36,333 nt of DNA, taken from the IMG/VR virus record IMGVR_UViG_3300014168_000010, positions 1 through 36,333 of that record, one strand, 5' to 3'. Under the pieces are notes generated by a model. The model worked only from the letters and a program-made list of their open reading frames with translations. It searched no databases and had not been told where the DNA came from. The first letter of the stretch is position 1; each line of letters begins with the position of its first letter. The stretch is from a virus (Duplodnaviria > Caudoviricetes). This document shows, one piece after another, positions 3,291-29,086 of this stretch. Both the position numbers and the translations under genes were made by a program.

Positions 3291-3500
3291 TTACTGCTTA
3301 AACTTTCTTTGCATCTTAGCCCAGAATGCCTTGGTCTGAATCGTGGGCTTACCATTCTTTAATACCCAACCCAAGTCAGGATCCCAAACATTTACTGAAT
3401 CTAAGTCATAAGGCTTAGGTGCTTCGGCCTCATGATCGGTAGAGACTCTCAAGGACAGATTCTTACGTCTAGCTAAAATCCCTTTAGTTCCCATTACCAA
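3291..3500 (-). CDS. Hypothetical protein (start probably ATG 3494)
   Basis: Coupled to the terL stop (TAATG) and fills the gap before the tRNA. Confidence 0.6.
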   Translation of the reverse strand: MVMGTKGILARRKNLSLRVSTDHEAEAPKPYDLDSVNVWDPDLGWVLKNGKPTIQTKAFWAKMQRKFKQ

Positions 3501-4951
3501 CCTATGGGTTCATCCTGAAATCCAGGCATCTCAGGCCAACCGCCTTGTTCCTGCTCTTGTTGCTTCTTAAAGTGTTCAATCGCCTGATCAAAATGATTCT
3601 CGTTCACTTTCTTATACCAACCCGGAGATCCTACAGCGTGCTTGATCACAATAGGATCGCTGATCGTTGGCCTGCTCATCAAAGCATAGCGCGTTTCATC
3701 ATATGCGTCATCTCCTGATAATGGATCACCTTCCGTGGCATCAACCTTAAGAACATCCTCAACATGATCAGGATCATGAATCATCCGAGACAGCGTATCG
3801 AACGTGATCGGACACGTATCGAAGATGAAGAACCTAGGCTTACCCGAAGCCTTACCTCTCCAAGCTAAGTAATCCCTAAGCTGAGCTGCGCCTTGAATCC
3901 GGTCTATGACCGCTGGGACAAGATTAATGCCATGCGTTCTAAATTGCTCTGCCACTGTTGGAGGTTGTTTGTCATCTCTGAGTGTGCTCTTTTGAGTCCA
4001 ACAATCTCTGCCAGCAACAATCGGATAGAGCTGTGCTGTGTCGCTGAAAGCGTTAAGTTTTTGCGCGAAGACATCAACTCGCACTCCTGCTTCGATAAGT
4101 TCTCGATACTTGTAAGTGTTTCCATCTTCATCCGTTGCGTACCATCCAAAAGCTGCTGGATGATTGAATCCATAGTCATAGGCTCCGAAACGGTTCCAGT
4201 GGTTTGGGATGGGGAAGGATCTGATGAAATGGACTTCTTTCGTGATCTCTTGGAAGAATTGCCCTGCGAAGATGTTCCAGTCTCCATATCTATATGCCTT
4301 TCTAAGTGCTTCGTTTGGTTCAGATTCTAAGCGGGTGACATAAGCCGGATCAGCCGCCATAAGCGCTGTGTTATCGTCCACCAGAGCTTGAATAAATGTA
4401 TAATCGTTGGGGTTTTCTCTCTCATTGAAGCGTCTTTCAATGAATAACCGCTTGAGCCATCCGTGGCCCACACCACCCGGATTGCCTGTAAGGATTGCCC
4501 TGGCCAAAATGCCGGTTCGGGATGACCGATTGGAACCAAGCAATCGTCTAAACATAGCTTCTGGCCATTGACCAGCCTCATCAATTGCCAAGTCATGAAA
4601 CTCTCGGCCTTGATAAAGATCAACGTCCGTTTCATTATTACAATGACAGAACTGAAGAGTTGAACCATTTGGAAGTGTTAACAGCTTTTTCGCTTCATTC
4701 CAATATTCTCTGAGGGCTGGGAAAGCCTGAAAGAGTGGTCGAATGTGATTTCCCTCGAGCTCAGGATAAGTGCGCCTAAATATGGCCCCAGTACTTCCAG
4801 CGTAGCGGAAGCGCCGCAGGAGCATGATAAGCTGCAAACCTTTCGATTTTCCTCCACCTTTGGCTCCACCGTAAAAAGTAATGGGCGTTTCTTCGATCGC
4901 TTTAAGGAACGCCTTTTGTTTCGGCTGGAGCGCGATTCGGAACTCAATCAT
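3494..4951 (-). CDS. terL: Terminase large subunit
   Basis: Adenine-binding LQPKQ, Walker A YGGAKGGGKS, Walker B LAIDEA, motif III LTGNPGG, RNase H-like nuclease AYDYGFNHP and DDAYDETRY. Confidence 0.96.
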   Translation of the reverse strand: MIEFRIALQPKQKAFLKAIEETPITFYGGAKGGGKSKGLQLIMLLRRFRYAGSTGAIFRRTYPELEGNHIRPLFQAFPALREYWNEAKKLLTLPNGSTLQFCHCNNETDVDLYQGREFHDLAIDEAGQWPEAMFRRLLGSNRSSRTGILARAILTGNPGGVGHGWLKRLFIERRFNERENPNDYTFIQALVDDNTALMAADPAYVTRLESEPNEALRKAYRYGDWNIFAGQFFQEITKEVHFIRSFPIPNHWNRFGAYDYGFNHPAAFGWYATDEDGNTYKYRELIEAGVRVDVFAQKLNAFSDTAQLYPIVAGRDCWTQKSTLRDDKQPPTVAEQFRTHGINLVPAVIDRIQGAAQLRDYLAWRGKASGKPRFFIFDTCPITFDTLSRMIHDPDHVEDVLKVDATEGDPLSGDDAYDETRYALMSRPTISDPIVIKHAVGSPGWYKKVNENHFDQAIEHFKKQQEQEQGGWPEMPGFQDEPIGW

Positions 4952-8770: not shown

Positions 8771-9149
8771 ACAGACTTTTGCGCTTTATGGGATTGAAGG
8801 CGAGTTGTTTGACGATAAAGGGCTTCATGTTTGTTTCACGCTCGAGCATGCCTATCAACAGGCCGATGGCTCTTATCAGCCCAAGGTCCCACCAGGCATC
8901 TATATCTGTCAGCGTGGTCAGCACCGGCTAGAAGGCATGAACAATAGCTTTGAGACATTTGAAATCACGAATGTGCCCGGACACACCAATATTTTGGTCC
9001 ATAAGGGTAATTATAATAATGATTCCGAAGGGTGCGTTTTAGTCGGCGCAGCGCTCGGCGTTGGATGCATTTTAGAGAGTGCAATAGCGTTTGGGTCATT
9101 TTTACAACTCCAAGAGGGATTGGATTCGTTTACCTTGACGATTCAATAG
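8751..9149 (+). CDS. DUF5675-like protein; endolysin candidate with an L,D-transpeptidase-like His/Cys motif
   Basis: GIEGELF..CFTLE..VPPGIY..VPGHTNILVHKGN..DSEGCVLVG matches the recalled family pattern; adjacent to holin- and spanin-like genes. Confidence 0.75.
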   Translation: MNLKLIRQTFALYGIEGELFDDKGLHVCFTLEHAYQQADGSYQPKVPPGIYICQRGQHRLEGMNNSFETFEITNVPGHTNILVHKGNYNNDSEGCVLVGAALGVGCILESAIAFGSFLQLQEGLDSFTLTIQ

Positions 9150-9465
9150 TGAATTCGACCATTCGATAGCAGATAAAACCACAGCCATATTTATCACAGC
9201 CGGGCTGGCAATCGGTTCTAAGCGGCTTACTCGAAATGTTATGGTCCATGCAGTCATTGGATAGGCTACAAAGCTGTAAGAACTCCTTGCCGGCGTTCCT
9301 GAGGGCTTTGCGGCGTGCTACAGGCTCGGTCTTAGCCAATCCAATACCACAAGCCTTTACGATGTTATCCGTGCGTTGACTGGATTCATCGGTACAAAAC
9401 CAATGATCGGCCTGAGCTACTGAAGAACAAAACAATAAGACAAAGGCTGTGGTGTATTTAAACAT
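9130..9465 (-). CDS. Secreted Cys-rich protein
   Basis: GAGGGGG RBS; signal peptide MFKYTTAFVLLFCSSVAQA; 8 Cys in the mature part. Confidence 0.7.
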   Translation of the reverse strand: MFKYTTAFVLLFCSSVAQADHWFCTDESSQRTDNIVKACGIGLAKTEPVARRKALRNAGKEFLQLCSLSNDCMDHNISSKPLRTDCQPGCDKYGCGFICYRMVEFTIESSR

Positions 9466-9476
9466 AAACAACCCCC

Positions 9477-9722
9477 TCAGAAGCAGCTGGTTTGACCGCT
9501 AACGGTGGTGCAGCTCATTGGGCGAGTGGTGTTATGCCCCATTCCAGCCCAAGGGTTGCCGCGCGCTTGCCGTGCAGCTATCTCTAGACTACTTTCAGTG
9601 TAGCACTCGTTATCGCTTGAGAAGTGTTCAGCATGGTCAACGCACCAGTCATGAACCGTTTGATGTGCGCAGCCAGAGGTTAGTAATAGACCCACTAAGA
9701 TTGCCAGATTGAGTGTTTTCAT
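9477..9722 (-). CDS. Small lipoprotein
   Basis: MKTLNLAILVGLLLTSGC lipobox; four further Cys. Confidence 0.7.
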   Translation of the reverse strand: MKTLNLAILVGLLLTSGCAHQTVHDWCVDHAEHFSSDNECYTESSLEIAARQARGNPWAGMGHNTTRPMSCTTVSGQTSCF

Positions 9723-9778
9723 GCTTCCAGTATGAAGCACTTTTTACACTCTGAGAATGTGTATAGTTTTACACTGTG

Positions 9779-17411: not shown

Positions 17412-17672
17412 TCAAGCCTCGTTAATATCCTGCGCACCAAAAGGAACCATTTCCATCGGCATCCACAAATGTTCAGTCTTGTGAATTTTCCCGACGACAA
17501 TTGATCCTTTTGGCATCGTCATTTCACGCATATAAATTCCTGGCGCGAAGTAATGTTTCGGCTCGATGTGAAGCTTTTGGTCTTCCGGAAGTTCCTTCAT
17601 AACGGATTCGAGCTGTACGATTCTTCCGCGTATTTCCGTTTGGTTTTTTTGTTCTTTGATTGCATTATTCAT
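17412..17672 (-). CDS. Cupin-like phage protein, apparently truncated
   Basis: HYFAPGIYMREMTMPKGSIVVGKIHKTEH matches the first half of a phage cupin family; the ORF ends 18 residues later. Confidence 0.55.
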   Translation of the reverse strand: MNNAIKEQKNQTEIRGRIVQLESVMKELPEDQKLHIEPKHYFAPGIYMREMTMPKGSIVVGKIHKTEHLWMPMEMVPFGAQDINEA

Positions 17673-17673
17673 T

Positions 17674-20166
17674 TTAATTGCTCACCTGTGTGATCGTAAT
17701 CATTGACGTCGATGACGTGGAATTTGCGCCACCATCTGTTTGAGCCCAGACAACATCACTAACGTTCAGTAGTCCTGTCCAAGTAACAGAGCCGGTATAT
17801 CCGCCAGAGGCTGACCCCGTTGTAGTTACTTGACGTTGACCTTGTGCGTATGTAATTGGGACAGCAGTGGTTGGAACGGTTCCGTTCACTACAATCGCGA
17901 TCTGAGATCCGCCAGCGCCAGAGTCAGTGTCGCTATAGGTAATGGAATAAATACCCTGCGTATTAATTGTCCACGATCCTCCAAGAGTTGCTGAGTCCGC
18001 GTAGGTGTAACAACTGCCAGACGCAACACGAGAATTAGTCCAGCGCCGAACTTTAGTGTTTGTCGATCCGTAGCCATTGCCAGAATCGTATGTGGATTGG
18101 CAGCGTGGCTGTGCAGCTGCACCGTTTCCGCTTGCGAGCGTCAGAGCAATGTAAGCTTGATACGGAGACGGTCCGCCGTTAAAAGACGCGGACGTGCTCG
18201 GTCGAATGTCAATGTAATCTCCGGCGTTCAGTGTAATCGAAAACGGCATTGGAACGAAAGAAACGCCCGAATTGTACTCGCCGACGTAGGAATAAAGCGA
18301 TCCGTTTTTGTACAAGTTAAGATTTCCAGCCGTTCCGCTGGAATAGTTCATTAAAAATAGTCCGTTATAAACTCCAGTTACAGGTGCCGTTGCCTTCCAT
18401 GCGCCTGCACCTGTGGTGACGATACAAGTCCCGCCCAAACAGCCAGAGTCATCAATTTTTGTGTCAAAATTGATTTGCGTGTTCGCGCCAGGCGATCCGC
18501 TGCTTGACATGTAGTAATGCGCATAAACCGCGCCCTGACTTCCTCCGATTGTGTTCGATGACCAGCCGACGATTGGGACACGAGCGAAGAAAGAAATCGC
18601 CACACCGTTATTGACCACGTTACCAGTGCTTGCGGTTAGTCCGTTAGCCGACGAAGTCTGCGTGCTGAAATTAAGATAATTATTTCCGCCCTCTGCAATT
18701 ATCTCGGTGCTGAAATAAGTGCTTGAAGACGTGCCCTGAACTGCGTGTCCGACAAGAATATAAGACGACGATGAAAGTTTAGTTGAGTCAATCGTGAGCG
18801 TGCCGCTCACGCCGCCAAAACAAGTCTGCATCTGTGCGGTGGAAGAAGTTGATGCTGATGGCGTAAATGTTCCCATCATTTCGAGAGAGTCACCAACCCT
18901 GCGCGACCAAAAGTTCGTGCTAGAGGTGGTGAGTGCGGTAAAGCCTGGCGTACACTGTGCCCAATCCGTTGAAATCCCAATTGCAGAGATTGATTGCCAC
19001 GTTGGGAGTGCGCTTGATCCCTGATAGGTGAGCACTTGTCCAACGGTTGTGCCCGCCGCGATTTGCTGAACACTCGATGTGCTAGTAGTTCCGCCGGCCA
19101 ACAAGGAATTTGCCGTTAAAGCAAGCAGTCCCGTTCCACCATACGGAACCGTAATGTCAGAGCCATTCCATGTCCCGCTTGAGATTGTTCCTACGGAAGT
19201 TAAAGATGAACCAGTCACGTTTGAAGCGAGAGTAGAACCAGTCAAAGAGCCAGCCGGTGCAGTAATCGTCGTATTACCAGCCGCAGTCACCAAGCCCTTA
19301 CCATTCACGGTAAAGGTCGGAATCATGCTTTGAGAGCCCCAAGAGCCAGTGTTCGAGTTCACTGTTGCGAGCGTGGCTGTGGTTGAACCCGGTCCAATTG
19401 CGGTTACGTCACCAGTAAGTTGTGTAATAGCACTACCGCTACCCGATGCTTGCCAAGTAGGAAGCGCACCCGCTCCATTCGAGGTAAGAACTTGTCCTGA
19501 TGTTCCAACGCCTGAAATTTGTTGAAAGTTACCGTTAGCAACGGTTCCACCCGCAAATAACTCATAGGCAACGTTAGAGTTAAGCCCGCTTCCACCATAT
19601 ACAGGCCCAATTACAGAACCGTTCCATGTGCCGCTCGAAATGGTTCCGATCGATGTAAGTGAAGAACTCACCACATTGGAAGCAAGCGTCGTTCCAGTCA
19701 AAGATCCAGCCGGTGCGGTGATAGTCGTATTACCAGCCGCAGTCACTAAGCCCTTGCCGTTTACAGTAAAAGTAGAAATCTGACTTTGTGATCCAAACGA
19801 ACCTACGTTGCTATTTACTGTGGCAAGCGTGGCCGTTGTCGAACCAGGCCCAATAGCTGTCACGTCCCCGGTCAATTGCGTAATTGCGTTGCCAGAGCCA
19901 GTCGTCGCCCAAGATGCGGTGGTCCCATTCGTCGTGAGAAACTTACCCGAATTGCCAGTCTGAGATGGCCAGAAATTGGTGATATCAGTGTTGAGAAGGA
20001 CGCCATTGATGTTGTCCCACATCTTGGACGTATTCAGAATTTGGCTTGTGGTGCCCCCATCTGAAATCACTTCATCCGAGGACTTAACGTCTTCATTCTG
20101 AATCCAGCCTGCATAGGCGGTCAGATAAGTCAGAAGTAAAAGTGCAAAGAGGCTAAGACGCCGCAT
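17674..20166 (-). CDS. Fibre/adhesin-like protein 2 with an N-terminal signal peptide (start revised to ATG 20166)
   Basis: G/S/T-rich fibre repeats (GQVLTSNG, GTWNGS, ITQLTGDV); C-terminal beta-sandwich-like domains; N-terminus MRRLSLFALLLLTYLTAYA. Confidence 0.8.
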   Translation of the reverse strand: MRRLSLFALLLLTYLTAYAGWIQNEDVKSSDEVISDGGTTSQILNTSKMWDNINGVLLNTDITNFWPSQTGNSGKFLTTNGTTASWATTGSGNAITQLTGDVTAIGPGSTTATLATVNSNVGSFGSQSQISTFTVNGKGLVTAAGNTTITAPAGSLTGTTLASNVVSSSLTSIGTISSGTWNGSVIGPVYGGSGLNSNVAYELFAGGTVANGNFQQISGVGTSGQVLTSNGAGALPTWQASGSGSAITQLTGDVTAIGPGSTTATLATVNSNTGSWGSQSMIPTFTVNGKGLVTAAGNTTITAPAGSLTGSTLASNVTGSSLTSVGTISSGTWNGSDITVPYGGTGLLALTANSLLAGGTTSTSSVQQIAAGTTVGQVLTYQGSSALPTWQSISAIGISTDWAQCTPGFTALTTSSTNFWSRRVGDSLEMMGTFTPSASTSSTAQMQTCFGGVSGTLTIDSTKLSSSSYILVGHAVQGTSSSTYFSTEIIAEGGNNYLNFSTQTSSANGLTASTGNVVNNGVAISFFARVPIVGWSSNTIGGSQGAVYAHYYMSSSGSPGANTQINFDTKIDDSGCLGGTCIVTTGAGAWKATAPVTGVYNGLFLMNYSSGTAGNLNLYKNGSLYSYVGEYNSGVSFVPMPFSITLNAGDYIDIRPSTSASFNGGPSPYQAYIALTLASGNGAAAQPRCQSTYDSGNGYGSTNTKVRRWTNSRVASGSCYTYADSATLGGSWTINTQGIYSITYSDTDSGAGGSQIAIVVNGTVPTTAVPITYAQGQRQVTTTGSASGGYTGSVTWTGLLNVSDVVWAQTDGGANSTSSTSMITITQVSN

Positions 20167-20335
20167 AAAAGTTCGTCCCATCATAGGTACATCCAATTTG
20201 AATCACGCTTCCATCCGCACATAAAAGACCGGCAATATCAACCCACGTAAAAGCCGGGTCCATATAATCAACCGCTGGATTGATAACTTGGGTATTCACA
20301 ACCACGCCCGATTGAATCTTTGCGTATGTGTCCAT
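20153..20335 (-). CDS. Small fibre-associated or assembly protein (60 aa; start revised to ATG 20335)
   Basis: YAKIQSGVVVN...IGCTYDGTNF pattern commonly follows Gly-rich fibre genes; TAATG coupling. Confidence 0.65.
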   Translation of the reverse strand: MDTYAKIQSGVVVNTQVINPAVDYMDPAFTWVDIAGLLCADGSVIQIGCTYDGTNFYAAS

Positions 20336-22287
20336 TAGTTCCAATACTCCACAATGATTGCGCCTTGGGTTGCCGCACCACCAGTCAATGCCACAGGCGA
20401 TGTACCGGAGTTTCCTGCGCCACCGCCTCCGCCACCATAACCAGTTGCAGCAGCGCCGGATGTTCCACCAGTAGCAGGAAACCAAGCCGCTTGACCGCCA
20501 GGACCCATGGGAGAGCTACCCCCGGAGTTGGCCGGAAAACCGGCAGTACTCGACGGAACTGAATTTGACGATTGCCCCGTAACGGCGAAAGTTAGATTAG
20601 AAGTACCACCGCCCGAAACACCGGCCGCGCCGTTTGCGAAAGGACCAATTGTCCCACCTGTTCCACCAAATGCTGTGTATGTAGTTGCGCCAACAGTGAG
20701 TGTGGTATTCCCGCCATTTCCGCCCGCCGCTCCAGACGCAGTAGAGCCACCGGCGCCTATCGCGATCGTATATCCAGTAGAAGGAGAGAGCCCCGTTAAC
20801 CAGACGCTACCAAAACCGCCGGCACCACCACCTGCAGAGCTTCCGCGCGCAGCAGTACATCCACCGCCACCACCACCGCCACCAATAAGAGTAAACTTAA
20901 ATGTAGTACTCGTAGTAATTGTCGAAGGAGTCGTATAGGTAGTTCCACTGGTCAAAGTTGTGGCGCCAACCTCAATACCTAAATTAGTCCTCGCACCAGA
21001 AACAGTAGAACCATTCGTTCCGCCGTTGGCAACCGGAAGAATGCCAGTAACGCCCGTGGTGAGACCAAGGCCCGTTGCATTGGTCAGAGTTAATGAAGTC
21101 GGAGTATCAAGACTTGGACTAATGAGAGAAGGACTATTGGACAAGACAACGGAACCCGATCCCGTCGATGTGGTAGCTCCTGTGCCTCCGTTAATCACAT
21201 TCACGACGCCGGTTATTCCACTTGCCGGAGCCGCGATGCTCGATTGTGATGCAGCTGTAATCAACCCCTTGCCATTCACAGTGAACGTAGGGCTCATACT
21301 CGCAGATCCAAATGAACCCACATTTGAATTCACGGTAGACAGAGTTAAGGTCGTATTTCCAGGTCCGATCGCCGATCCATCTCCGGTCAGCTGAGTAATG
21401 TAATTACCTGATGCTGCTTTACTGTTGAATGTGTTCCAATCGGTAGAAGATAGATAACCACTGGTGGTCGCTCCAGCTTGGATAATGCTGATGTTTGGAG
21501 TTGAGCCACCTGAGCTTAAAATCGGAGTGGTTGCAGTCACGGAGCTAACAATGGATGCAGCGGTGGTTCCAACAGGATAAACGAAATAGACAAGCTGACC
21601 CTCAGCCGGGGCCGTATTGAAAGTTACAGTTGTTCCCGACAAGCTCCAGCCATAAACAGCATTATTAGAAGCGACCTGAAGCCCATCGATAGAAACAATC
21701 AAAGCGCTTTGAGAAACTGGAGTATGGCTTGTGGTAAACGTAACATTCGAACCATTAGAAACGCCCGTTACAGGGCTTTCTGCATACCAAGTAATGCCGT
21801 TACTCGAAATCGAAGTAATCCGGCCATCAGCACCGACCGTCAGAAGAGGGGAAAGATATGTGCCAGCCGTTACGCCAGTGTTGGAAAGAGTCGCAGTAGT
21901 TGAGCCGGGCCCAATTGCCATTACCGCGCCAGTTAGCTGAGTAATCGCTCCGGTTCCTGGATTTGCTTTGAAGCTCGGATCAACGCCAGGGCCATTATCT
22001 GTGAGCACATCGCCAGATGCGACCGGACAGACCAAGTGCACATTGGCAGTAGATTCGCCAACTACTACGCAGTTTGAACCAAGATTCGCAAGCCCAGTGC
22101 CACCACCAGCAACAGAGTCAACACCCAGGGAGACAGTGACTCCGCTATGCGTTCCGGTGAAGTTCGGGAAGTCGTAGAAAAAGGTCGTGACATTATTGGT
22201 GTCAGTAGACAGCTTAGACGTAGTCGGGGGAAGCCCCGCCTGCGCTATCGCAGTCAAAAGAAGAAGTAAACCAAGCCATTTCTTCAT
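20335..22287 (-). CDS. Fibre/adhesin-like protein 1 with an N-terminal signal peptide and Gly-rich tip
   Basis: MKKWLGLLLLLTAIAQA; GYLSSTDWNTFNSK and LPVANGGT shaft motifs; IGGGGGGG...GAIIVEY C-terminal domain. Confidence 0.85.
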   Translation of the reverse strand: MKKWLGLLLLLTAIAQAGLPPTTSKLSTDTNNVTTFFYDFPNFTGTHSGVTVSLGVDSVAGGGTGLANLGSNCVVVGESTANVHLVCPVASGDVLTDNGPGVDPSFKANPGTGAITQLTGAVMAIGPGSTTATLSNTGVTAGTYLSPLLTVGADGRITSISSNGITWYAESPVTGVSNGSNVTFTTSHTPVSQSALIVSIDGLQVASNNAVYGWSLSGTTVTFNTAPAEGQLVYFVYPVGTTAASIVSSVTATTPILSSGGSTPNISIIQAGATTSGYLSSTDWNTFNSKAASGNYITQLTGDGSAIGPGNTTLTLSTVNSNVGSFGSASMSPTFTVNGKGLITAASQSSIAAPASGITGVVNVINGGTGATTSTGSGSVVLSNSPSLISPSLDTPTSLTLTNATGLGLTTGVTGILPVANGGTNGSTVSGARTNLGIEVGATTLTSGTTYTTPSTITTSTTFKFTLIGGGGGGGGCTAARGSSAGGGAGGFGSVWLTGLSPSTGYTIAIGAGGSTASGAAGGNGGNTTLTVGATTYTAFGGTGGTIGPFANGAAGVSGGGTSNLTFAVTGQSSNSVPSSTAGFPANSGGSSPMGPGGQAAWFPATGGTSGAAATGYGGGGGGAGNSGTSPVALTGGAATQGAIIVEYWN

Positions 22288-22745
22288 GAGCTAAGCACCC
22301 ATTGAATCGTATACATTTGAGTCCCACTATTTGGACAAATCGAAAGATTATGGCTCATCGGCATGAATCCGGTGTCTCTACCTGGTTCCATCTTCATCCC
22401 GTTTGTCGCGCTAGCCGTAGAATTCGAATCACACCAGCGCATGAAATCAGTATTTGAAGAATCGGCCTCAAGCAAGAAGCCAACCGCATTGGCGGGCTTA
22501 GTGATGGTGGTGGCAGAAGAAATTGAGCCCTGAGAAAAGCTGCCATTGAGATTGACCGGCGCACTACCGCCCGACGTATCAACCAGTAGGGCACCAGAGG
22601 CATCCGTCTGCAGAGGCTGAAGATTTCCGCTTGGATTTTCACCCGCAACGAGTGTGGCATCCGCTGGAATTGGACTCCCATTAGGGCCAACGCTCGCATT
22701 TGAACCGCCAATTACGCCCGGATATGATGCAAAAAAGTTTGGCAT
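22284..22745 (-). CDS. Putative virion protein (153 aa)
   Basis: Packed in the tail block; beta-rich. Confidence 0.7.
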   Translation of the reverse strand: MPNFFASYPGVIGGSNASVGPNGSPIPADATLVAGENPSGNLQPLQTDASGALLVDTSGGSAPVNLNGSFSQGSISSATTITKPANAVGFLLEADSSNTDFMRWCDSNSTASATNGMKMEPGRDTGFMPMSHNLSICPNSGTQMYTIQWVLSS

Positions 22746-23198: not shown

Positions 23199-25801
23199 TA
23201 ATCCCATGCGGCCTGCCTCTGGGCCGCCGCCTGATCTTGTGTGTAATGATTCTCTGCAATCTTACCCATTTTGCTAGTATTTTTTGCTTGCCTTTTTGGA
23301 GCCCCAGTCGGAGGCATCGCGGGCTTGGGTGCATAGATCGCCTGAATGGATTGAATTGCCTGTGGCGTCATCGTCGAATCAAGAGGTTGACCCAAGAACA
23401 TACTCAATCCTTGTCTCACTCGATAACTCGGTTTTTCCTCATCCACCCCGGCTTGCATGATTTTTTGAGTAAGTTTCTTAGACATGTGATCATGAATCTC
23501 GGGCCAAAGAGATTTGAAATGATTCAGAGTTTCTGGCGTAAGGGTTCCTGCTTTAATGTGATTGAGAATGCCAAGGGGCTGAATCGCAAGATCAAGAGCT
23601 TTTTGATAAGAGCGATGTTGATCCGTGTTTTCTCGAGAAGTGTCAAATGCAAGCTTGGGTAATGGTTTTTGAGGCCGGACGGAGTTCAAATAATTAGCCA
23701 CCCTGACCTTGGCACCAGCAAGCATTGCCGCATGATCTGGTAGAGCCTTCCCCAGCTTTTCAAAGCCCCTTAAAGCGGGCTGGACAGGCTCATCGGGCAT
23801 AGCAACAGGCTCTGGCTTTATGACTTCACCGCCGTGCGCGAACTTTTGAGATGGAGTGGGCGACGGAGCAGGTTGTTGAATCTGAGACTGAAATTGCCGG
23901 TCCAACTCCCCATTCTCTAAATACTTATCAATTTTTTCTTTATCTTTATCGGATGTGATTGCATCAACGGCCCGCGCTCCGCCGGCCTTAAATAAAGAAT
24001 TAATCCCATCAGAAAGCTTTCCAGCACCCTTCGCAGCAGATTCTGCATAACCCAGGACTTTTCCAGCCGAATGGGGTGCATTACCACTCAGCGCTTTGAC
24101 TACAAACGGCAGAACTGATTGCTTAACTTTTCTTCCAATGGCTTCCTCAAAGTGAGGAACAATAGCGCCAGTTAAAGCACCCGCAACGCCGCCACCAATT
24201 GCGCCAGGAATCCCATATTGCTTATACCCCTCTTGCTCACCAATAGCGGCTCCAGCAACTCCATGTGCCGCGCGGTTAGCAAATCCAGGAACACCAAATT
24301 GGTAAAGAGAATCCGCAAATTTAGCGCCAGCACTCTTTTCACCATAAGAGTCTTTGATGAGTTCGGTTGGCGGCGTGAAAAGGGGCGATTCAAGTCCATA
24401 TTCAGAGTGAAGCGCATTGATTTCTTGCTGCATGTTTTCTGAACCGTTCACCCAGCGCTGAACAAAGCGAGCCTTGTCGGATCCGGCAAGCTTCCCCTTT
24501 TGTTGCTGGTTCAGATAAGTCTCAACAGTACCGGATTTGATAACCTTATTTCCCTCATCCTCAAGAGGAGTTGGAGAAAAGCTTTCAGAAAACTTTCTTA
24601 AAAAGTCCTTATTAGCTGGCATGAAATTAGAGACAGATGCATTCAGCCTCTTTTGAAAGTCTCCGGCGTCATTCCATACGTCTGAATCTTCTAGAGTAGT
24701 GCCAAGATCATGATAAAGAGCGCCGGCCCTCTTATTAGTTAAGTCTCTTTCTCGTTTTTGAAACTCAGCTAACTCATCTCCAACGCGCCTTTTCATCGAA
24801 TCCGTAGCTTGAAACACATCAGCCGGAGTCGGCGGCCTTCCAATCGGTTGCAGAGTAATTGGATCGATTTTTGGAGTTACTGAATCTTTCCACTCTCTTA
24901 CAATGTCCTGAAGTCCTGAGTTGTTTTGCAAGTCACCGGATAATGATGAAAGTTTTTTAGCCACATCATTGACGTGCTGATCTACCTGGTCTTGAGTTAC
25001 ATCTTGAGTAAGTCTTGCAATGTTTGAGGCCTTACCTTGGCCAGAGCCATACATGTAATCTCTTGCCGCATCGTTTGATGCCAAAAGATTGCCCATTTGC
25101 TCGGCGGTAGACTCAGTTACATTAGGGTTTTCATTCCAAAATTTAAGGCGACTTCCGGCGTCACTCAAAAACTGTGACAGCTTAGTGCCAATATTTGATT
25201 CACCAATTGCCCTTAGAGCCGGAGTAGCAACCCGCTCCATTGCGGCACCGCCAACGCCCCCCAACAGAGAAACAGCCCCATCAGCCATCAAAGAAGACGG
25301 AGCAGCCTCATGTGGATCTAGCCCCTCTTGCATTGCTCGAGACGCCTTGTCTACGCCAAGAAAAAGACTTGTTTCAAGAGTGTTCTTAATTACAGAGGAT
25401 GCGAAATTGCCTACTTCTGCGGCCTTTGCCGCCGCTCCCGCTGCGGTTCCAGCAGCTGAAATTCCAGCACCAATTGGACCTGCGACTAATCCAGCAAGTT
25501 CTCCGGCTCCAGCGACGAAAGGGTGCGCTTCCGCTCTTTGAGCTTCGGCCTTTTGTTCCTCAGCCGCAGCTGTATCTGGTAAATATTTTTCCTCAAGGCC
25601 AGCGAGTGGCCCCAAAACACCACGCCTCACGGCCTCAACGCCAGTTTTCCAGGTATCAAGTAAACCAGAACCCTGGTCTGGAGCCGAAGGTAGATCTTCA
25701 GGCGGAACCTCTTGCCCTGAAAGATTAGGCTGAGCGGGTTGACTGGCGGACTCTGGAAGATCCTCGGGAGGAACCTCCTGACCGCTTACTGGTAATACCA
25801 C
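23198..25801 (-). CDS. Internal virion/ejection protein 3 (867 aa)
   Basis: Third of three A/G/Q-rich helical genes after nozzle and GNAT; Gly/Ala-rich membrane-like segments; SGQEVPPEDLP twice at the N-terminus. Confidence 0.7.
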   Translation of the reverse strand: MVLPVSGQEVPPEDLPESASQPAQPNLSGQEVPPEDLPSAPDQGSGLLDTWKTGVEAVRRGVLGPLAGLEEKYLPDTAAAEEQKAEAQRAEAHPFVAGAGELAGLVAGPIGAGISAAGTAAGAAAKAAEVGNFASSVIKNTLETSLFLGVDKASRAMQEGLDPHEAAPSSLMADGAVSLLGGVGGAAMERVATPALRAIGESNIGTKLSQFLSDAGSRLKFWNENPNVTESTAEQMGNLLASNDAARDYMYGSGQGKASNIARLTQDVTQDQVDQHVNDVAKKLSSLSGDLQNNSGLQDIVREWKDSVTPKIDPITLQPIGRPPTPADVFQATDSMKRRVGDELAEFQKRERDLTNKRAGALYHDLGTTLEDSDVWNDAGDFQKRLNASVSNFMPANKDFLRKFSESFSPTPLEDEGNKVIKSGTVETYLNQQQKGKLAGSDKARFVQRWVNGSENMQQEINALHSEYGLESPLFTPPTELIKDSYGEKSAGAKFADSLYQFGVPGFANRAAHGVAGAAIGEQEGYKQYGIPGAIGGGVAGALTGAIVPHFEEAIGRKVKQSVLPFVVKALSGNAPHSAGKVLGYAESAAKGAGKLSDGINSLFKAGGARAVDAITSDKDKEKIDKYLENGELDRQFQSQIQQPAPSPTPSQKFAHGGEVIKPEPVAMPDEPVQPALRGFEKLGKALPDHAAMLAGAKVRVANYLNSVRPQKPLPKLAFDTSRENTDQHRSYQKALDLAIQPLGILNHIKAGTLTPETLNHFKSLWPEIHDHMSKKLTQKIMQAGVDEEKPSYRVRQGLSMFLGQPLDSTMTPQAIQSIQAIYAPKPAMPPTGAPKRQAKNTSKMGKIAENHYTQDQAAAQRQAAWD

Positions 25802-27456
25802 TTGCCGTCCTTTTGAACCATTTTCTTGCCACTTTTTGATACATCACCCTGTGGTGCGGCCTGAGAAGGAGCTTTTCCGCCGCCACGCTTAACGCCATAA
25901 GCATCAAGGGTTGTATTAAGTCTAGACTCATTACTTCTAATCATCTCTTGGAATTTGGCAGTACTGCCCATGACTTGGGGAATAATATCAAGGGGATTTT
26001 TAGCAAATTGCTCGTCATACCAGCCAAGCCGTCCCTGTGTAAGCGCTCCTCCGTGGATTGAATCATTATAGAAGTTCTTCATTTCTTCTACTTTTTGTTG
26101 AGCAACGGCCCTGTCGCTTGGATCCCATCGATTAAAATCAAGTCCCTTATGTCCTTGAATAAATGACATAAGATCTTTTCCTTTAGCGTCCAAAATATTT
26201 TGAGCATTAACCTGATCGCGAACACTTTGAGGAATTGCCACAGACGCATCCCCAATTCCGGGAAGGTGTCTTTCCGATTGATAATCGCTTAATGTTTTTC
26301 CTTCGGCTCCGAGTCCAGCCAAAGCCATGTTCTGATTTTTCCAATTGTTCTCAATTTGCTGACCAGTTAATGCATTTTGATTTGCAGCATGAGAATCAGC
26401 CGCCGATTGAAGCATTTGATGAGCGGCCGCCATATTTTGTTTCATTGGACCCGGAGGCTGTTTATTGACTTGATCGCCGGCCTGTTGGAGCACGCTCATG
26501 AACATGGCCTGTTTTGCATAGTTCATTTTGGCTAGATCGGCATTGGCGTTATTTATGCCAATTTCAGACAATATCTTTTGCGCTTCAACTGGCTGATTTT
26601 TAGTTAATGCCTCTTGATATTTACCTTGAAGGTCTCTCAGTTTTAATTCAGACAAAGCAGTTACATGCTGATTTGCCATATTCCAGGCACTGAATTGATT
26701 TGCTTTGGTTGCCTTTTGAGCTTCAATGTCATTATCAATCTGTTTTTGCATGGCTTGCATAATGACGTTCGGCTGATGAGTAAGGCCTGAACCCATGCCA
26801 GCGGCAAGCATGCTGAAAAACATCCCAATCTTACTTGGAACTCCGCGATCCGATCCGTCTGGATTTTTAGCCCAGAAATCATGCATGGTCTTTGGCGTTA
26901 TGGTTCCATTTCCAACAAGAGTCTTGAGCTCGTTGTAATGATCATTTAGTTGATTTGCGATCGTATTAGCGTCTAGAGGACTAGAAACGATGTTTGTTGG
27001 GCTTGGCGCTTGGGCTTTGGCCTGTTTTTGAGCAACAGGCGGTTGTTGTTCTTCATCATCCTTATCACTAAATGAAGTTTTATCTTCATCAGTTTCAGGT
27101 TGGGGTTGTGGCTGTTGTCCAGCGTTTGGATTTACGCCAGTTGTCGCCTCGGGGCCTGGATCAGACACGCCCGGAGTATATTCTGCTGGAACCGCAGGAG
27201 TCTGTGGTTGATCTGTAGCCCCATCGGGAGATGGATTCGGCTCGGGAGATGGATTCGGCTCAGGATTGGGCCCCCCGCCATTAGCCATCTTTTGAGCTTT
27301 TTGGCCATGCAATGGGATTTTATCAAGCTCTGCACGCATTTTGGGGGATAACTTACTGTGAGCAATCTTAATCTCATGACCCATGTCATGCTTAAAGACC
27401 GTCATATTATTGTCTGAAGAAACTTTTTTAAGTTTTCTAAGATCTAGGCCTTTCAT
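25786..27456 (-). CDS. Internal virion/ejection protein 2 (556 aa)
   Basis: Gene position; Q/A-rich coiled coils; hydrophobic IGMFFSMLAAGMGSGL segment. Confidence 0.7.
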   Translation of the reverse strand: MKGLDLRKLKKVSSDNNMTVFKHDMGHEIKIAHSKLSPKMRAELDKIPLHGQKAQKMANGGGPNPEPNPSPEPNPSPDGATDQPQTPAVPAEYTPGVSDPGPEATTGVNPNAGQQPQPQPETDEDKTSFSDKDDEEQQPPVAQKQAKAQAPSPTNIVSSPLDANTIANQLNDHYNELKTLVGNGTITPKTMHDFWAKNPDGSDRGVPSKIGMFFSMLAAGMGSGLTHQPNVIMQAMQKQIDNDIEAQKATKANQFSAWNMANQHVTALSELKLRDLQGKYQEALTKNQPVEAQKILSEIGINNANADLAKMNYAKQAMFMSVLQQAGDQVNKQPPGPMKQNMAAAHQMLQSAADSHAANQNALTGQQIENNWKNQNMALAGLGAEGKTLSDYQSERHLPGIGDASVAIPQSVRDQVNAQNILDAKGKDLMSFIQGHKGLDFNRWDPSDRAVAQQKVEEMKNFYNDSIHGGALTQGRLGWYDEQFAKNPLDIIPQVMGSTAKFQEMIRSNESRLNTTLDAYGVKRGGGKAPSQAAPQGDVSKSGKKMVQKDGKWYYQ

Positions 27457-28754
27457 TTTCGAGCCCTTCTTTTGGCCAGAATATTATCTACAAAATCGGC
27501 ACTATTCTTCTCTGGATTTTTACTCTTAGTCTCGCTGCGGGGCACAACTATGCCACCTTCTTGTAGATTCTTTTTAACGGTATCATTGGCATAGGAATTT
27601 TTAGCACCACCTACTTTTGGCTTACCACCAATTTTCTCACCAACTTTCATTGGATCGGCGCCATTTCTAACGGCCTCGACAGCCCTGGGAGATAAATAAA
27701 CTTCTCCGGGCGACAAAAGAGCTGGAACCTTTCCGCCTTTAGCAAAGGTAGAGGTAACTCCCATGTTTTGAGCCGATGTGGCTTGTCCACCAACAGGATT
27801 GGTTACAGGAGCGCTGGATTGAACGTCCATTGCATTGGTGCCTTGATCTTGTCCAACTGGTTTTTGAGCAGGCTTTTGAGGAGTTCCCGCACCGAAGCCA
27901 CTCGATGTAGCCGGATACGGAACATTTTCGGCCTGAGAGGGCGGCATGGAAGTATTTTGAACCAAGAATTGACCAAATGAGGGGGAACCACCGCTACCAC
28001 CGAAGGGTTGGCCACCGGAATATCCGCCATCAGCCATCTTTTGTGGAACCTCACCGCCGGCGGCCATGCTAAATCCAGCAAGTCCAGCCGATCCAAGAGC
28101 TCCACCGATAAGACCCTGTTGACCCTGTAACATTGTGCCAGCAAGTCCGGCGTTCGCATTATTGATGTTGGATTGCATCGCAACTTGGTTCGTATTGTAG
28201 CCCTGAAGCGCGTTAAGAAGCTGTCCCTGCTCCGATTGCTGAGCCTGCACATTGGCATTGGTTTGGCCAATTTGCTGACCTGCTTGAGTCGTAGCAAGTT
28301 GACCTGCACCCTGAATTGCCGCGACTTGATTCTGTGCTTGTTGAGCTGCCTCTTGTCCAACGGCTTGTTGCTGAGTCGCAGCGCCTTGTTGCGCGGCTTG
28401 ACGGGCGATTAATCCCACATTGGAACCAGCACCGCGTTGACCGGCCATAAGCGCAGCTTGGTTAGCTACGTTTGCGGCAGTGTTTTGATTAAATTGAGCT
28501 TGAGCAGGATTTACAGCACCGCTTGCGATGCCCTGAAGTTGACCATAAACCTGAGATTGATTCTGAACGCCCTGTTGAGCCTGCAGGGCCTGTAAAAGCT
28601 GTTGCTGAGAGGTTAGACCGCCCTGAACCCCGGTGTAGGCTTGTTGAACTTGCTGTGAGTTTGTAGGAGCTATAATATTAGCGGATTGGGGGCCTGCAAA
28701 GCCAGTCCCGCCGGCTCCACCGCCCAATCCTGCAAGTCCAGGTAACGAACCCAT
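27453..28754 (-). CDS. Internal virion/ejection (pilot-like) protein 1 (433 aa)
   Basis: Very Q/G/A-rich; position equivalent to P22 gp7 / T7 gp14. Confidence 0.7.
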   Translation of the reverse strand: MGSLPGLAGLGGGAGGTGFAGPQSANIIAPTNSQQVQQAYTGVQGGLTSQQQLLQALQAQQGVQNQSQVYGQLQGIASGAVNPAQAQFNQNTAANVANQAALMAGQRGAGSNVGLIARQAAQQGAATQQQAVGQEAAQQAQNQVAAIQGAGQLATTQAGQQIGQTNANVQAQQSEQGQLLNALQGYNTNQVAMQSNINNANAGLAGTMLQGQQGLIGGALGSAGLAGFSMAAGGEVPQKMADGGYSGGQPFGGSGGSPSFGQFLVQNTSMPPSQAENVPYPATSSGFGAGTPQKPAQKPVGQDQGTNAMDVQSSAPVTNPVGGQATSAQNMGVTSTFAKGGKVPALLSPGEVYLSPRAVEAVRNGADPMKVGEKIGGKPKVGGAKNSYANDTVKKNLQEGGIVVPRSETKSKNPEKNSADFVDNILAKRRARK

Positions 28755-29086
28755 CAGATTTCCCTTTCAAATAATACGAAATCAACACCAGCGGACGCAA
28801 GCTTCATCCCGTAAGAGAGAGGAAGTCTTAAACTTTCGGTACTGTTTTTAGCACTCGGGACAACACAGCCCATCAACTTGGCACAGCCCTCTTTTTTGGC
28901 TATTTTTGAGATCTCATCGAGCATCTGTGTCGCTGTTCCAGCTTTTCTAAAGTCAGACTCAACAAAAATGTCGATAATGTAGACTGCCTTCTGCTCCGGG
29001 ATAATCCGATAAGTCGCAAACCCATGCCCGGTCTCTAAGATCCGGTCGTTAGTGCGTTCGGTCAAATATTTAGCATAAAGAGACAT
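28754..29086 (-). CDS. GNAT-family acetyltransferase-like protein in the virion module
   Basis: VYIIDIFVESDFRKAGTATQMLDEISKIAKKEGC motif A. Confidence 0.8.
   Translation of the reverse strand: MSLYAKYLTERTNDRILETGHGFATYRIIPEQKAVYIIDIFVESDFRKAGTATQMLDEISKIAKKEGCAKLMGCVVPSAKNSTESLRLPLSYGMKLASAGVDFVLFEREI

Follow-up and report, generated by a model that had tools for sequence, protein, structure and literature searches.

It is commonly taught that tailed phages build all parts of their virions in the cytoplasm, and the question raised by the locus described here is why two tail-fibre-like proteins of such a phage should begin with what look like signal peptides for export. The window, by which we mean the whole stretch of DNA that was analysed, spans 36,333 bases and is one virus record (IMG/VR IMGVR_UViG_3300014168_000010; Duplodnaviria, Caudoviricetes). 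Near the end of its structural operon lie the genes of fibre A (650 aa) and fibre B (830 aa). A preliminary description, made from the sequence, had proposed that both products carry Sec-type leaders and are exported, either to complete the virion in the periplasm or at lysis, or to act as host-surface adhesins or receptor-masking proteins. Our comparisons indicate that the leaders of A and B are real features under selection, and we give a little better than an even chance to the view that A and B are exported accessory fibres which dock on virions at lysis.

Leaders of fibres A and B and the GLPP family

Both proteins have the features of substrates of the Sec pathway and signal peptidase I (SPase I), namely a basic n-region, a hydrophobic h-region and small residues at positions -3 and -1. 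Leaders were called with our own heuristic for these n-, h- and c-regions and not with SignalP; it gives some false positives on short proteins and misses leaders without K or R. The heuristic passes four of the 48 open reading frames (ORFs) of the window, which are A, B and those at 9130-9471 and 9477-9740; its background pass rates are 0.7% and 1.0% for whole-protein shuffles, and 0.4% and 0% when it is run on internal windows. Sequence and heuristic agree on the Sec-type starts (basic n-region, h-region, A-x-A/G) that the preliminary description had read in the two proteins. The two other ORFs that pass, both on the minus strand and outside the structural operon, encode cysteine-rich secreted-type and lipoprotein-type small proteins.

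Neither A nor B has a lipobox cysteine, a Tat motif or a later transmembrane segment, and a lipoprotein or Tat leader was rejected because the motif is absent. Residues 2-14 of A form a helix in the AlphaFold model, and the best 19-residue hydropathy window of A lies elsewhere than in the h-region of the leader. Mis-called starts were also rejected as the source of the leaders, since there is no usable start between the leader of A and the conserved domain behind it: the sole alternative within codons 1-70 is a TTG at codon 11, which lacks a Shine-Dalgarno-like sequence. For A this removes the possibility, named in the preliminary description, that the true start lies downstream of the hydrophobic segment. 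The in-frame starts upstream of B (TTG 20196, ATG 20184 and ATG 20181) would merely lengthen the n-region, and the next downstream starts are codons 33 and 49. Leaders are scarce on ordinary fibres: they were found in 2 of 75 other viral loci retrieved through the repeats of A and on 1 of 118 unrelated fibres retrieved through the repeat of B.

Further evidence comes from the domain that follows the leader of A. This 47-residue segment, which we call the GLPPT domain, has invariant columns and was matched in 250 clusters at E<=1e-3; it is without secondary structure in a low-confidence monomer model and may be a docking or trimerisation module. Ordinary fibres begin in an anchoring domain, and the contrast with them drawn in the preliminary description is not sustained for A, which once cleaved would itself start with a conserved domain resembling an attachment module. 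We gathered 160 proteins of this family (hereafter GLPP) and scored 156, the four skipped ones being two with visible leaders and two non-members. A hydrophobic leader stands directly before the domain in 120 of the 156, so that the signal is widely kept in homologues of A; in 34 a Met stands directly before it, and two are unclear. One leader-free case was confirmed in its DNA context (L193). Under a stricter pattern, which retained 149 proteins, 105 of 122 leaders have Ala at position -1 and 110 are followed by Gly at position +1, and the identity to A is 30% over the leaders and 69% over the next 46 residues. The leaders keep their length, hydrophobicity and -3/-1 rule in exact register despite the divergence of their sequences, and such turnover around a fixed cleavage register is what is expected of a working signal peptide. 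The 34 proteins with Met directly before the same domain imply that one mature N-terminus can be reached by either route. By sequence comparison, the family contains leader-bearing and leader-free forms of one attachment domain.

In a tree of the family the leader-free members are scattered, requiring 11 changes, of which strong branches force only one, and the nearest rows to A are leader-free. The tree was built from 50 columns by a quick search and is poorly resolved, and 11 rows missed by the pattern, six of them leader-free, were left out; it suggests repeated loss of the leader. The search for relatives of the mature N-terminus of B was dominated by a short repeat and found none beyond this phage, and for this reason the leader of B is called from its own sequence. 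In two loci (L204:5825-13448 and L214:6008-10286) several adjoining genes start with leaders, including one for a 132-aa small protein and further fibre-like genes.

Fibre modules, the partner gene and the core tail fibre

Sequence and model comparisons identify A and B as receptor-binding-type fibres. The tip of A matches PF21722 (25.8 bits against a cut-off of 24.3), and its residues 433-650 resemble the Pam3 tail fibre (7YPX; Z 9.3, rmsd 3.9, 175 aligned residues, 27% identity), followed by the Bxb1 tail tip (Z 7.5); the fold search used a monomer model with a mean pLDDT of 52, of which the tip is the better part. A thus has the TNF-like plus glycine-rich C-terminal domain of the glycine-rich-tip fibre class (Pam3 gp24 / S16 gp38 type). 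Compared with a near-identical phage, A differs by 83 changes, all within aa 435-647, and in a contig of run X5 the sequence at 20330-20860 is replaced by another; therefore three tip forms occur on one shaft. The same tip, at 66% identity, ends a leaderless 552-aa fibre of a close relative (L192), where the same 60-aa gene is present. The C-terminal modules of B likewise recur in leaderless fibres: a baseplate-type myovirus fibre in L227 (phrog_11303, E 5e-26), a core fibre in L174 and a Bdellovibrionales prophage fibre in L243. The last belongs to a podovirus-like prophage region (G302:C27; L243, L244) on a 218-kb Bdellovibrionales contig, whose leaderless 892-aa fibre has two tip modules of B. 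A C1q match for B in the Atlas (0.84) and the C1q/TNF-like assignment are leads only. Sequence searches of solved structures gave no match for B, the 60-aa protein or the 153-aa partner, and for A only Pam3 rows at E 0.52. Of the earlier interpretation, the tail-fibre identity gains support from the Pam3-like tip, the shared tip modules and the tip swapping.

The 60-aa gene between A and B may encode a tip helper. The preliminary description had seen a tension in its lacking a leader between two leader-bearing fibres, and this is borne out: the leader is absent, and the tension recurs in at least one other phage. A leader-bearing fibre precedes the gene in L227 as well and, as a weak case, in L207. 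A near-identical contig (L001) lacks 107 bases (window 20125-20231), so that the 60-aa gene loses its end and B its start; the gap lies 227 bases from the contig end, and an assembly error is possible.

Immediately upstream of A lies the gene of the 153-aa partner. Its C-terminus is a conserved 90-residue domain modelled as a jelly-roll (pLDDT >95), with matches to generic jelly-rolls (cupins, Z 9.1; PM2 spike, 8.5; HFTV1 turret, 7.4) and no T4gp10-like row among the 50 matches listed; a PRD1 P5 match (0.89) is a lead only. Among 38 distinct partner copies, a pattern search found a GLPP gene next downstream in 33, and inspection by eye added two more (L189, L219). Conversely, all 16 GLPP genes that matched strictly and whose upstream DNA was present have the partner directly upstream, one contig-end gene having been dropped. 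Podovirus-like and baseplate-bearing (myovirus-like) genomes both contain the pair. Of the 33 pairs, 23 have a leader on the fibre only, seven on both genes and one on neither, and in two the partner is cut off. Over its first 60 residues the partner matches the N-terminal segments of leaderless fibres from clade members L158 and L162, whose fetched loci show no pair. The partner and the GLPPT gene are thus probably a docking pair, as judged from gene linkage. Gene order and linkage agree with a layout like that of branched receptor-binding proteins, in which the fibre-like N-terminus of the partner would be the putative virion anchor.

A further fibre-like gene, encoding 367 aa without a leader, lies between two tail genes and is called here the core fibre. 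Two of its 34 distinct orthologues have leaders (L171, L254), which are unrelated to each other; each is nested among leaderless relatives, and their joint grouping is rejected (approximately unbiased test, p 2e-22). The leader-bearing gene is in its usual position where checked (L171/L172), and both leader-bearing proteins retain an internal Met in the anchor motif. The phylogeny indicates that the core tail fibre gained a leader twice independently. If the core gene encodes a virion part, as its position implies, then a virion fibre can take on a leader, and this is our main reason for favouring the virion over the host surface as the destination of A and B. In the phage of the window, the 367-aa protein without a leader probably serves as the primary fibre and follows the usual assembly route; since it and the leaderless partner exist, the exported fibres would not be the only fibres of this phage. 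The lineage with the leader-bearing core fibre also has a leader-bearing 976-aa fibre (L172:19725-22655) with a different N-terminus and no GLPPT domain.

Known systems, genome and host

The preliminary description had compared A and B with the MAT fibres of Bdellovibrio bacteriovorus. [quoted passage not shown] A also has in common with MAT-type proteins a short shaft module in sequence, and its best cellular matches are Bdellovibrio proteins, with leaders in 46 of 78 matching chromosomal ORFs. The analogy and the shared shaft module stand; membership was rejected, because the MAT N-terminal domain was not found on A or B with a profile of nine Bdellovibrionota MAT-like N-termini from the fetched loci, not the 21 published MATs (no match at either N-terminus; best match in B, E 0.94 at aa 553-582). 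No Pfam S74 peptidase match was found on A or B, which still allows a non-S74 MAT subgroup. The location in a virion operon and the leader-free relatives are further differences.

Virion proteins made with Sec signal peptides are familiar from filamentous phages, in which pVIII and the receptor-binding pIII are such proteins; inoviruses assemble at the membrane and are extruded, and their proteins keep a membrane anchor. The phage described here differs from them in its terminase, its tail module and its holin-like genes, and neither A nor B has an anchor. Pam3 gp24 resembles A in its TNF-like and glycine-rich tip followed by a small gene; it differs in docking on the baseplate through an N-terminal helical bundle and in its 162-aa chaperone gp25 (PMC9608196), whereas A has a leader, the GLPPT domain and a 60-aa neighbour. 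Podophages of Klebsiella (KP32, K11 and KP34) offer a parallel for the gene pair, with an anchored protein bearing a docking domain followed by a fibre with a short conserved start peptide (PMC13352976). Our partner is a jelly-roll for which no T4gp10-like link was found among the matches listed, and its pair binding is only proposed; no export figures in the branching systems of these phages as described in the accessible sections (PMC13352976, PMC6872550). In the literature searched on exported or signal-peptide-bearing virion fibres and on Bdellovibrio phages, with most subscription journals and supplements outside the scope, no description of this route was found.

Table 1. Positions of the fibre genes, their parts and other features in the window.
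Feature	Position	Strand	Remarks
Fibre A gene, 650 aa	20335-22287	-	starts MKKWLGLLLLLTAIAQA/G
Fibre A leader, aa 1-17	22237..22287	-	predicted Sec/SPase I signal peptide ending A-Q-A; heuristic and leaders in relatives
Fibre A GLPPT N-terminal domain, aa 18-64 (47 residues)	22096..22236	-	conserved family with invariant columns
Fibre A shaft	20971..22095	-	repeats also present in B, in fibres of other phages and in surface proteins of Bdellovibrio/Bacteroidota (module aa 247-360)
Fibre A tip, aa 440-650	20335..20970	-	TNF-like and glycine-rich receptor-binding-type domain; PF21722, Pam3 fold match
60-aa tip-associated protein (phrog_14370)	20153..20335	-	no leader; travels with the glycine-rich tip
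Fibre B gene, 830 aa	17674-20166	-	starts MRRLSLFALLLLTYLTAYA/G
Fibre B leader, aa 1-19	20110..20166	-	predicted Sec/SPase I signal peptide ending A-Y-A; heuristic
Fibre B mature N-terminus and two ~152-aa shaft repeats	18976..20109	-	
Fibre B three C-terminal modules (aa 398-550, 551-684, 685-830)	17674..18975	-	one cysteine pair each
153-aa partner, putative adaptor	22284..22745	-	no leader; stop overlaps the ATG of A; C-terminal jelly-roll aa 62-153
Core fibre-like gene, 367 aa	32543..33646	-	leaderless; between two tail genes; orthologues in two other lineages with leader
Terminase large subunit	3494-4951		
Structural operon	36333 down to ~16650	-	roles except terminase assigned from order and composition

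The structural operon runs from the last part of what is probably a capsid gene (SU10 match weak, E 0.24) through a 355-aa tail protein, the 367-aa fibre-like gene and a 1035-aa tail protein to three large proteins whose placement resembles that of internal virion proteins, a 130-aa gene, the 153-aa gene, fibre A, the 60-aa gene, fibre B and a holin-like gene. Neighbouring genes overlap by 1-14 bases, and no sigma-70-like promoter was found on the strand of the fibre genes. Among 50,697 phage records there are no cultured relatives of the GLPPT domain, the 153-aa partner or the 1035-aa tail protein, and the terminase reaches at most 38.5% identity among the matches listed. The 1035-aa protein retrieved 27 loci from viral contigs, of which 25 are other phages with 45-74% identity in the best segment. 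The sequencing runs that best cover the fibre region are wetland and peat metagenomes; contigs from the RNA libraries of two studies contain pieces of capsid, tail and both fibre genes alike, and DNA carry-over is possible.

Several other genes deserve mention. A GNAT acetyltransferase (28754-29086, minus strand) separates the 1035-aa tail gene from the genes that resemble those of internal proteins, a position kept in many relatives. A short repeated motif, A/Y-x-GG after an aromatic residue or Met, occurs in the proteins at 884-1792, 25786-27456 and 27453-28754 (minus strand) and in their orthologues. The 86-aa gene after fibre B (17412-17672, minus strand) looks truncated, because its relatives have 154-291 aa and it matches only the first 70 positions of PHROG families of 160-169 positions, which are labelled short tail fibre or adhesin.

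As to the host, the pair of partner and GLPP genes was found in an integrated prophage on a contig of a Pseudobdellovibrionaceae genome (G001:C389), flanked by miaB, guaB, guaA and dnaE on one side and by an integrase-like gene on the other. The DnaE of this contig is 77-78% identical to those of two Bdellovibrio genomes and 46-52% identical to the best matches in three other genomes tested. The partner profile matched none of 401 sampled genomes of the Bdellovibrio phylum. Distant prophage matches to the 1035-aa family occur in two of 384 Bdellovibrionales genomes (G302, G660), of which the fibre of the G302 prophage has no leader and no leader-bearing fibre was seen in G660; the terminase of the window matches three of the 384 at 31-34%. 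These comparisons suggest that the phage group lives at least partly on Bdellovibrio-like hosts, and they do not fix the host of the window's own phage. One may speculate that a predatory host which lyses inside its prey cell would confine the exported fibres together with the particles.

Possible destinations of the fibres

The route that we favour would run as follows. A and B, accessory receptor-binding fibres from the late structural operon of a podovirus-like phage, would be exported by Sec, cleaved to starts in GLPPT and GWIQ and folded in the periplasm, where at least B would form disulfides. Once lysis has mixed the compartments, they would dock on completed particles, A probably attaching through its GLPPT domain to the jelly-roll of the cytoplasmic 153-aa partner. 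We infer from the comparisons above that A and B are exported rather than cytoplasmic, that A binds the partner, that the fibres are present on the virion and when they attach. Export, the first half of the earlier interpretation, gains indirect support from the conservation of the leaders, their fixed register and the parity of cysteines; the destination only leans to the virion. The parity concerns GLPP proteins of at least 300 aa with at least one cysteine, in which real export would give even cysteine counts: these are found in 57 of 77 proteins with a leader versus 7 of 21 without (Fisher p=0.0014), in one of several cysteine tests and with relatedness ignored.

A number of observations weigh against this route. 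The cysteine fraction does not differ significantly between leader-bearing and leader-free proteins (p=0.25 and p=0.13), three domain-level cysteine tests are not significant (p=0.09, 0.43 and 0.25), and A has three cysteines, an odd number, while B has six. The distances of partner and GLPP domain are uncorrelated (rho 0.10, 303/2000 permutations), and the N-terminus of B has no known partner. Leaders stand on the partner as well as on the fibre in loci of the myovirus type, and therefore nothing cytoplasmic visibly anchors them there. The presence of a leaderless core fibre means that A and B may be unneeded on the particle. Finally, the 60-aa tip helper has no leader, and in Pam3 a downstream chaperone is required to fold the same tip type (PMC9608196). 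Against this last objection, homology of the 60-aa protein to the Pam3 chaperone was not found in a sequence search; either the helper binds after lysis, or it has a role other than that of a folding chaperone, or export is incomplete.

The main rival, that A and B are exported and act off the virion, seems to us rather unlikely. The two would be adhesins displayed by the host during infection or lysogeny, of use to a predator, or soluble decoys which mask receptors on cells and debris and spare the progeny from loss. Such roles accord with the shaft modules that recur in exported chromosomal fibres, with the Bdellovibrio proteins as best cellular matches of A, with the pair in an integrated prophage of a Bdellovibrio-like host and with its occurrence in podovirus-like and myovirus-like genomes, in the latter with leaders on both genes. 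Signal-peptide genes of Porphyromonas phages have also been interpreted as host-membrane modifiers (PMC10367356). However, A and B lack the N-terminal domain of MAT proteins as well as a lipobox or membrane anchor; 34 of the 156 family members and usually the partner are leader-free; the genes are coupled in a virion operon whose strand shows no sigma-70-like promoter; a leader also occurs on the core tail fibre gene; and the RNA-library contigs cover capsid, tail and fibres alike, not the fibres alone, subject to the carry-over mentioned above.

Two further explanations keep the fibres on the virion by other means. Export could be leaky or dispensable, the copies on the virion stemming from protein left in the cytoplasm (precursor that escaped export, or the product of an internal start) and the leaders being picked up from exported host fibres and tolerated. 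The scattered leader-free members of the GLPP tree, the leader-free nearest rows to A, the leaderless 60-aa helper and partner and the internal Met kept by leader-bearing core fibres point this way, but divergent leaders would hardly hold length, hydrophobicity and the -3/-1 rule in register, nor would cysteine parity track the leader, and A offers no usable start behind its leader; we consider this improbable. Still less probable, in our judgement, are leaders that serve as uncleaved or slowly cleaved anchors, tethering fibre assembly to the inner membrane where particles collect the fibres before lysis. A tether would hold the fibre beside its cytoplasmic partner and 60-aa helper, and the h-region is modelled as a helix; against it stand the short h-regions, the basic n-region and the canonical A-x-A site conserved throughout the family, and the topology, which predicts a periplasmic mature part.

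We see about an even chance that, in a widespread group of tailed phages at least partly on predatory Bdellovibrionota, one branch of virion assembly is periplasmic: fibres exported by Sec and folded with disulfides would be attached to finished particles at lysis by a portable docking module of two genes (jelly-roll and GLPPT peptide), and repeated gain and loss of leaders would switch fibres between the cytoplasmic and the exported route. Oxidative folding would then be usable for the host-recognition proteins of phages, fibre attachment would come late, after the compartments have mixed, and secreted proteins could be displayed on particles by using the 47-residue domain and its partner as a portable clip. 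If the fibres instead act off the virion, hosts that are probably predatory bacteria would receive adhesins or decoys from these phages, something equally undescribed in the literature searched. The same attachment domain with or without a signal peptide may be a natural experiment on the completion of virions with periplasmic parts.

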